IMG/VR virus record: IMGVR_UViG_2869924733_000007
Coordinates: 1-43,624 of that record
From: a virus
Lineage: Duplodnaviria > Heunggongvirae > Uroviricota > Caudoviricetes
Direction: 5' to 3' (one strand)
Length of the DNA stretch: 43,624 bases
Under the pieces are notes generated by a model that made no database searches, was not told the origin of the DNA, and was given only the letters and a program-made list of their open reading frames with translations. Of the stretch, positions 43,241 to 43,624 are shown piece after piece. The stretch's first letter is position 1; every line of letters starts with the position of its first letter. The position numbers were made by a program, and so were the translations under genes.

Positions 43241-43624
43241 TTGATGAAACAGCCTGCGCCCGTTTATCAGAGAATTGCGGGTCATCAATGGCGACATATC
43301 TGGCTTTCTGGCGATATACACGGTTGTCTTGAGCAGTTGCGCCGCAAATTATGGCATTGTCGTTTTGATCCGTGGCGAGATTTACTTATCTCAGTGGGAG
43401 ACGTTATCGATCGTGGGCCGCAAAGTTTACGTTGTCTGCAGTTACTGGAACAACATTGGGTTTGTGCGGTAAGAGGCAATCATGAACAGATGGCGATGGA
43501 TGCGCTGGCATCCCAGCAGATGTCTTTGTGGTTGATGAATGGCGGCGACTGGTTTATTGCGCTGGCAGATAATCAACAGAAACAAGCGAAAACGGCGCTG
43601 GAAAAATGTCAGCATTTGCCCTAA
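43241..43624 (+). CDS. pphA: Serine/threonine protein phosphatase 1 (PphA/PrpA), N-terminal portion; ORF ends at a stop codon on the window edge
   Basis: MKQPAPVYQRIAGHQWRHIWLSGDIHGCLEQLRRKL...GDVIDRGPQSLRCLQLL...RGNHE metallophosphatase motifs; the recalled E. coli protein is longer (about 218 aa). Confidence 0.75.
   Translation: MMKQPAPVYQRIAGHQWRHIWLSGDIHGCLEQLRRKLWHCRFDPWRDLLISVGDVIDRGPQSLRCLQLLEQHWVCAVRGNHEQMAMDALASQQMSLWLMNGGDWFIALADNQQKQAKTALEKCQHLP

Follow-up and report, generated by a model that had tools for sequence, protein, structure and literature searches.

The window, meaning the whole stretch of 43,624 nucleotides that was analysed, corresponds to CP027027.1:3019375..3062998. 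It contains an IS-riddled lambdoid prophage remnant with an ipaH effector gene, located between yebY and pphA (prpA). The prophage is inserted into sdsR/ryeA, at the 3' end; this sRNA locus is matched by Rfam with scores of 179 and 118 bits. Native pphA upstream sequence resumes from the right copy of an imperfect direct repeat (Table 1). The corresponding empty site is found in L009, a short-read contig (Logan ERR4095029) that lacks a prophage between yebY and pphA and is continuous through the repeat; its pphA has one synonymous difference. Once the prophage and the IS4 element described below are discounted, the conserved order yebY - sdsR/ryeA - pphA - yebW - yebV - rsmF is present.

Table 1. 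Features of the window and of the adjoining pphA junction (window positions unless another record is named).
Feature	Position	Strand	Remarks
yebY	1..342	+	Pfam YebY match; gene call CP027027.1 3019375..3019716; ATG is window base 1
ryeA (SraC)	463-607	-	Rfam
sdsR (RyeB)	504-603	+	Rfam
Imperfect direct repeat, left copy	579-605		27 bp
Integrase ORF	735-1745		CP027027.1 3020109-3021119
IS630-family (DDE_3) transposase ORF	1726-2757	-	343 aa
IS630-family transposase, second copy	20358-21389	+	same transposase
IS600/IS30 composite, copy (approximate)	3839-6325	+
IS600/IS30 composite, copy (approximate)	15111-17597	-
IS600/IS30 composite, copy (approximate)	22095-24581	-
IS600/IS30 composite, copy (approximate)	33880-36366	+
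IS600/IS30 composite, copy (approximate)	40337-42823	-
Rfam matches inside prophage	3324-3502, 10597-10785, 22036-22138, 24640-24724, 25541-25848, 40141-40323
Imperfect direct repeat, right copy	43085..43111	+	attR-like core, from sdsR 3' end; 23 of 27 bases match the left copy
TTG	43241..43243	+	in frame, one codon 5' of the annotated ATG; start used in the ORF list
pphA/prpA 5' piece	43244..43624	+	codons 1-126 and TAA stop
Target-site duplication, left copy	43610..43621	+	12 bp, CAGCATTTGCCC; two-sided repeat in L002-L007
Target-site duplication, right copy	L005 7805-7816		CAGCATTTGCCC; outside the window

The gene pphA codes for a lambda-phosphatase-like Ser/Thr/Tyr protein phosphatase (a PPP-type metallophosphoesterase), and only its 5' part lies within the window. 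Its translation, MKQPAPVYQRIAGH...ALEKCQHLP, is followed by a TAA codon at 43622-43624, the final three bases of the window, as the first-pass annotation had seen, and the frame across this point reads ...CAG CAT TTG CCC TAA. The fragment is 127 aa long when counted from the TTG at 43241 and 126 aa when counted from the ATG at 43244. RefSeq places the pphA start at the ATG, and position 1 of the NCBIfam profile aligns there. The TTG is probably not a real start and accounts for the earlier count of 127 residues. Residues 1-126 are identical to those of full-length E. coli PphA, a protein of 218 aa that runs on beyond residue 126 with FILEVHSRTGKH... (the continuation is also given as FILEVHSRTGKHVIAHADYP...) for 92 further residues, in agreement with the 90 or so that had been expected. 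The NCBIfam PphA equivalog profile NF008516 (218 positions) is covered by the fragment at positions 1-126 with 243.5 bits. The full-length cut-off is 326 bits, and the fragment falls below it because half of the protein is missing. Likewise, the fragment spans just the first half of the Pfam Metallophos domain.

Comparison with intact copies of the gene locates the point at which the similarity ends. A megablast search with the last 725 bases of the window gave a pphA match in every one of the 5,426 complete E. coli genomes; the best hits listed align only up to window base 43622. When the query was shortened to the last 180 bases, 5,425 genomes matched, and again the listed best hits end two bases short; some of these are 100% identical across the last 178 bases, yet end two bases before the window does. 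Wild-type pphA reads CAGCATTTGCCC TTT ATT CTT GAA, whereas the window reads CAGCATTTGCCC TAA and ends. The final two bases (aa) mismatch pphA, and the T at 43622 agrees with the wild type by chance. The homology to pphA breaks off exactly at the TAA that ends the window.

The sequence beyond this point was read in the source record, CP027027.1 (L004), and across the loci L002-L008. Over its final 6,381 bases, the window agrees with the source record without a mismatch, and the record continues past the window end with TAATGCCAGCCAGTTAAG.... Eight of the loci that encode the exact 126-aa protein were retrieved. In seven of them, a gene for an IS4-family transposase begins 10 bases past the stop, on the other strand; the remaining one, L009, is a contig that reaches 27 bases into IS4 and stops there. 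The six loci that reach past the element carry a short ORF followed by yebW, yebV, rsmF and yebT, the usual downstream genes of pphA. The first-pass annotation had proposed an inspection of the downstream sequence, and what is found there, in the source record and in the other assemblies, is an insertion sequence followed by the rest of the gene. Immediately 3' of the first copy of CAGCATTTGCCC, IS4 begins with TAATGCCAGCCAGTTAAGCAACTGACTGG...; its far end reads ...CCACTGGATCGGTCAACTGATCCTTAACTGATCGGCATTA (given also as ...GATCGGCATTA) and is followed by a second copy of CAGCATTTGCCC and then by TTTATTCTTGAAGTACAC.... The latter is the remainder of pphA, in frame to its normal stop, and the 3' half of the gene is therefore intact 1.4 kb away. 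The stop codon of the pphA fragment comes from IS4, whose terminal inverted repeat opens with TAA. Deletion in silico of IS4 and one copy of CAGCATTTGCCC restores an uninterrupted 218-aa ORF, in which two residues differ from the reference PphA.

The element has the length and terminal repeats of IS4, a DDE transposase with the N-terminal domain, and a 12-bp target duplication; target duplications of IS4 are 11-13 bp long. Four assemblies (L003, L005-L007) carry it at a length of 1,426 bp. Its ends, TAATGCC and GGCATTA, form imperfect inverted repeats in which 15 of 18 terminal positions are complementary. The 442-aa ORF matches Nterm_IS4 (PF13006, E = 3e-33) and DDE_Tnp_1 (PF01609, E = 8e-32), and the element is 99.9% identical to annotations of 'IS4-like element IS4 family transposase' in E. 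coli genomes. There is no substantive difference between the pphA copy and the IS4 of E. coli K-12 (1,426 bp, 18-bp imperfect terminal inverted repeats), from which the copy in the source record deviates by two homopolymer indels. The element is shorter in two long-read assemblies, measuring 1,424 bp in the source record (L004 6379-7802) and 1,423 bp in CP026824.1 (L002 6379-7801). These copies differ only by single-base deletions in runs of G4-5 and C5, two of them in the source record (G5 and C5 runs), and the transposase ORF is split. The deletions are probably long-read assembly errors rather than real decay. Whether they are errors or decay, the conclusion on pphA is unaffected. In the same two records, rsmF and yebV are likewise split.

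It is practically certain that a 1,426-bp IS4 has split pphA after codon 126, with its terminal TAA closing the frame, and that the window was cut at gene calls. No result of the analysis speaks against this structural conclusion. IS4 transposed into pphA after codon 126 and copied 12 bp of target (CAGCATTTGCCC) in doing so, and since its terminal repeat starts TAATGCC, the pphA frame stops as soon as it enters the element. A scan of GTDB species-representative genomes for the junction TGTCAGCATTTGCCCTAATGCC gave no match. This is expected because an E. coli genome stands in for Shigella in that set, and it is not counter-evidence.

Because the stop coincides with the final base of the window, one might suspect an artefact, produced by a contig end, by an assembly break at a repeat, or by a chance cut through an intact gene; the short-read contigs L009 and L008 do end inside IS4. 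This is very improbable for the stop itself. The 5.04-Mb chromosome of the source record continues across the entire element to the remaining part of pphA and on to yebW and yebV, the same junction is present in the independent assemblies L002-L008, and wild-type pphA has TTT at this triplet rather than TAA. The coincidence of the stop with the edge is, by itself, accepted as an artefact of how the window was made. The window starts at the yebY ATG and ends at the stop of the truncated pphA call, and the other edge, being a gene boundary as well, points to deliberate gene-based trimming. The integrase ORF lies in CP027027.1 where colinearity predicts. About 0.34% of window positions bound an ORF of at least 100 aa, and both edges would do so by chance with a probability of about 1e-5. 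The window was evidently trimmed from gene start to gene end around the prophage, and the stop falls on the final base because the cut was made at gene-call boundaries. Since gene calls set the edges of windows in this data set, the ending of an ORF at an edge is uninformative by itself. Of the two possibilities raised by the first-pass annotation, a premature stop in a pseudogene beside the prophage has therefore held up, with the terminal TAA of IS4 as its cause, whereas a chance coincidence with the window edge has not, since the edges follow gene calls.

Disruption of pphA by IS4 is predicted to abolish the function of the protein. The alignment of complete PphA with the bacteriophage lambda Ser/Thr phosphatase (PDB 1g5b) extends over 212 residues, from end to end (E = 2.9e-62). 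The fragment keeps GDIHG at 23-27 (GDxHG), GDVIDRG at 52-58 (GDxxDRG) and GNHE at 78-81. The motifs HAD at 142-144 (His142) and GHTP at 186-189 (His187) lie past residue 126 and are lost. We take the metal ligands of lambda phosphatase to be Asp20, His22, Asp49, Asn75, His139 and His186. PphA His142 and His187 align with His139 and His186, which are presumably the ligands of the second metal. A 126-residue product would thus retain the N-terminal metal motifs and lack both the C-terminal ligands and half of the fold, and we infer from these missing parts that it is catalytically inactive. The window product is identical to E. coli PphA over residues 1-126 but ends at residue 126 of 218; it scores below the full-length cut-off of NF008516 and carries an incomplete set of metallophosphoesterase motifs. 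The gene is pphA by descent, and its product is not a full member of the PphA/PrpA family.

Alternatively, the 126-residue product could be a functional short phosphatase or a regulatory isoform maintained by selection. The exact 126-aa sequence occurs on at least 22 contigs, one of them from Shigella dysenteriae 1012, and is listed as a protein by some sources; moreover, IS4 gives the same truncation in either orientation. However, recurrence is accounted for by shared ancestry of the insertion, and a product that covers only 126 of 218 profile positions, scores under the family cut-off, and lacks two of six metal ligands and half of the fold is highly unlikely to be a working enzyme of this family. 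The untranslated 3' half is undecayed, suggesting that the gene was disrupted recently and has not been remodelled. The first-pass annotation had held that full-length homologues ending naturally at this position would overturn a premature stop. The proteins that do end here are copies of the same IS4-truncated allele only, and the remaining named members listed for the cluster have lengths of 218-219 aa, except for one partial sequence of 194 aa. Finally, a TTT to TAA nonsense substitution in an otherwise continuous pphA, which the window alone cannot tell from an insertion given that only two bases within it differ from the wild type, is extremely improbable: beyond the TAA, the source record and six other assemblies go on with IS4, and not with ATTCTTGAAG..., and a second copy of the 12-bp target precedes the displaced 3' half of pphA.

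Insertion of IS4 at this site in pphA may have occurred more than once. In L009, which lacks the prophage, IS4 is found at the identical pphA position with the opposite end entering (L009 6379-6408, TAATGCCGATCAGTTAAGGATCAG...). Recombination between IS copies cannot swap the IS end that abuts the pphA 5' piece, so L009 probably carries a second, independent insertion at the same site. Both ends of IS4 start TAATGCC, and the same 126-aa product therefore results from either orientation. It is somewhat more probable than the contrary that IS4 favours the point behind codon 126 of pphA as a target and has struck it in at least two independent events, once in the ipaH-prophage lineage of Shigella to which the window belongs and once, in the opposite orientation, in the prophage-free L009. 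If so, the PrpA branch of the envelope-stress response has undergone a convergent, and possibly selected, loss in Shigella. The IS4 target consensus is AAA-N20-TTT, to which the pphA site, AAAAATGT-CAGCATTTGCCC-TTT, is an inexact fit by hand count. A further independent disruption of the same gene is seen in E. coli CFSAN027350 (NZ_CP037941.1; L013 1545-2975), where the element (IS1), the position (near codon 30) and the lineage all differ; the two pieces of pphA are annotated as pseudogenes in RefSeq.

The elements that inactivate prpA and prpB in Shigella are reportedly IS1, IS4, IS600 and IS629. The truncation of pphA is a real pseudogene with an ordinary cause, of a kind already described in Shigella. 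The window is assigned to Shigella by the source name attached to the identical protein (Shigella dysenteriae 1012) and by its gene content, namely ipaH, CssrB and the IS load. Loss of prpA and prpB through IS insertion was reported by Li et al. 2005 (Microbiology 151:2671; PMID 16079345), as cited by Hershberg et al. 2007, from a survey of both genes in 58 Shigella strains. As far as the survey is outlined there, the allele in the window shares with those alleles the gene (prpA being pphA), the group of organisms and the class of mechanism, in which an IS leaves a truncated ORF. IS4 has expanded in all Shigella species and has thereby caused convergent gene loss (Hawkey et al. 2020, PMC7373316); the main text of that paper makes no mention of pphA or prpA. 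The ORF at the window edge should be annotated as the 5' part of a pphA pseudogene disrupted by IS4, and not as a short phosphatase. It adds a case to the genome decay through IS elements that is typical of Shigella, here in the prpA/prpB family, whose repeated loss in this group has been reported, and has little importance beyond correct annotation.

The prophage may have affected pphA separately from IS4. In E. coli K-12, the main pphA promoter is that of sdsR, from which transcription reads through the sdsR terminator (PMC6610125). Because of the intervening prophage, the distance from the sdsR promoter to pphA is 42.6 kb here. Separation from its usual promoter would additionally be expected to reduce transcription of the gene. 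The EIEC-like E. coli VL40 and O121 201805972 have the same ipaH prophage beside an intact pphA, so the IS4 hit was a separate event, and it probably came later than the prophage insertion.

Several other features of the prophage were observed. IS600 with IS30, the latter at the same point of orfA each time, is present in five copies of ~2.49 kb with at most three mismatches, suggesting that the composite moves as a unit on the IS600 ends or spreads by gene conversion. The copy beside pphA is a plain IS600 without IS30 in L002. An IS630-family transposase ORF overlaps the first codons of the integrase ORF, possibly leaving the integrase truncated at its N terminus and the prophage immobilised. 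The Rfam matches in the prophage are to the RalA antitoxin sRNA, the C4 and isrK antisense RNAs with the a1/b1 target, a four-tRNA cluster, and CssrB, a Shigella sRNA that lies directly downstream of ipaH. In S. dysenteriae 1012 (AAMJ02000022.1), another IS4 (L012 2575-3921) is located directly next to the prophage integrase, in the place occupied by yebY/sdsR in the window.
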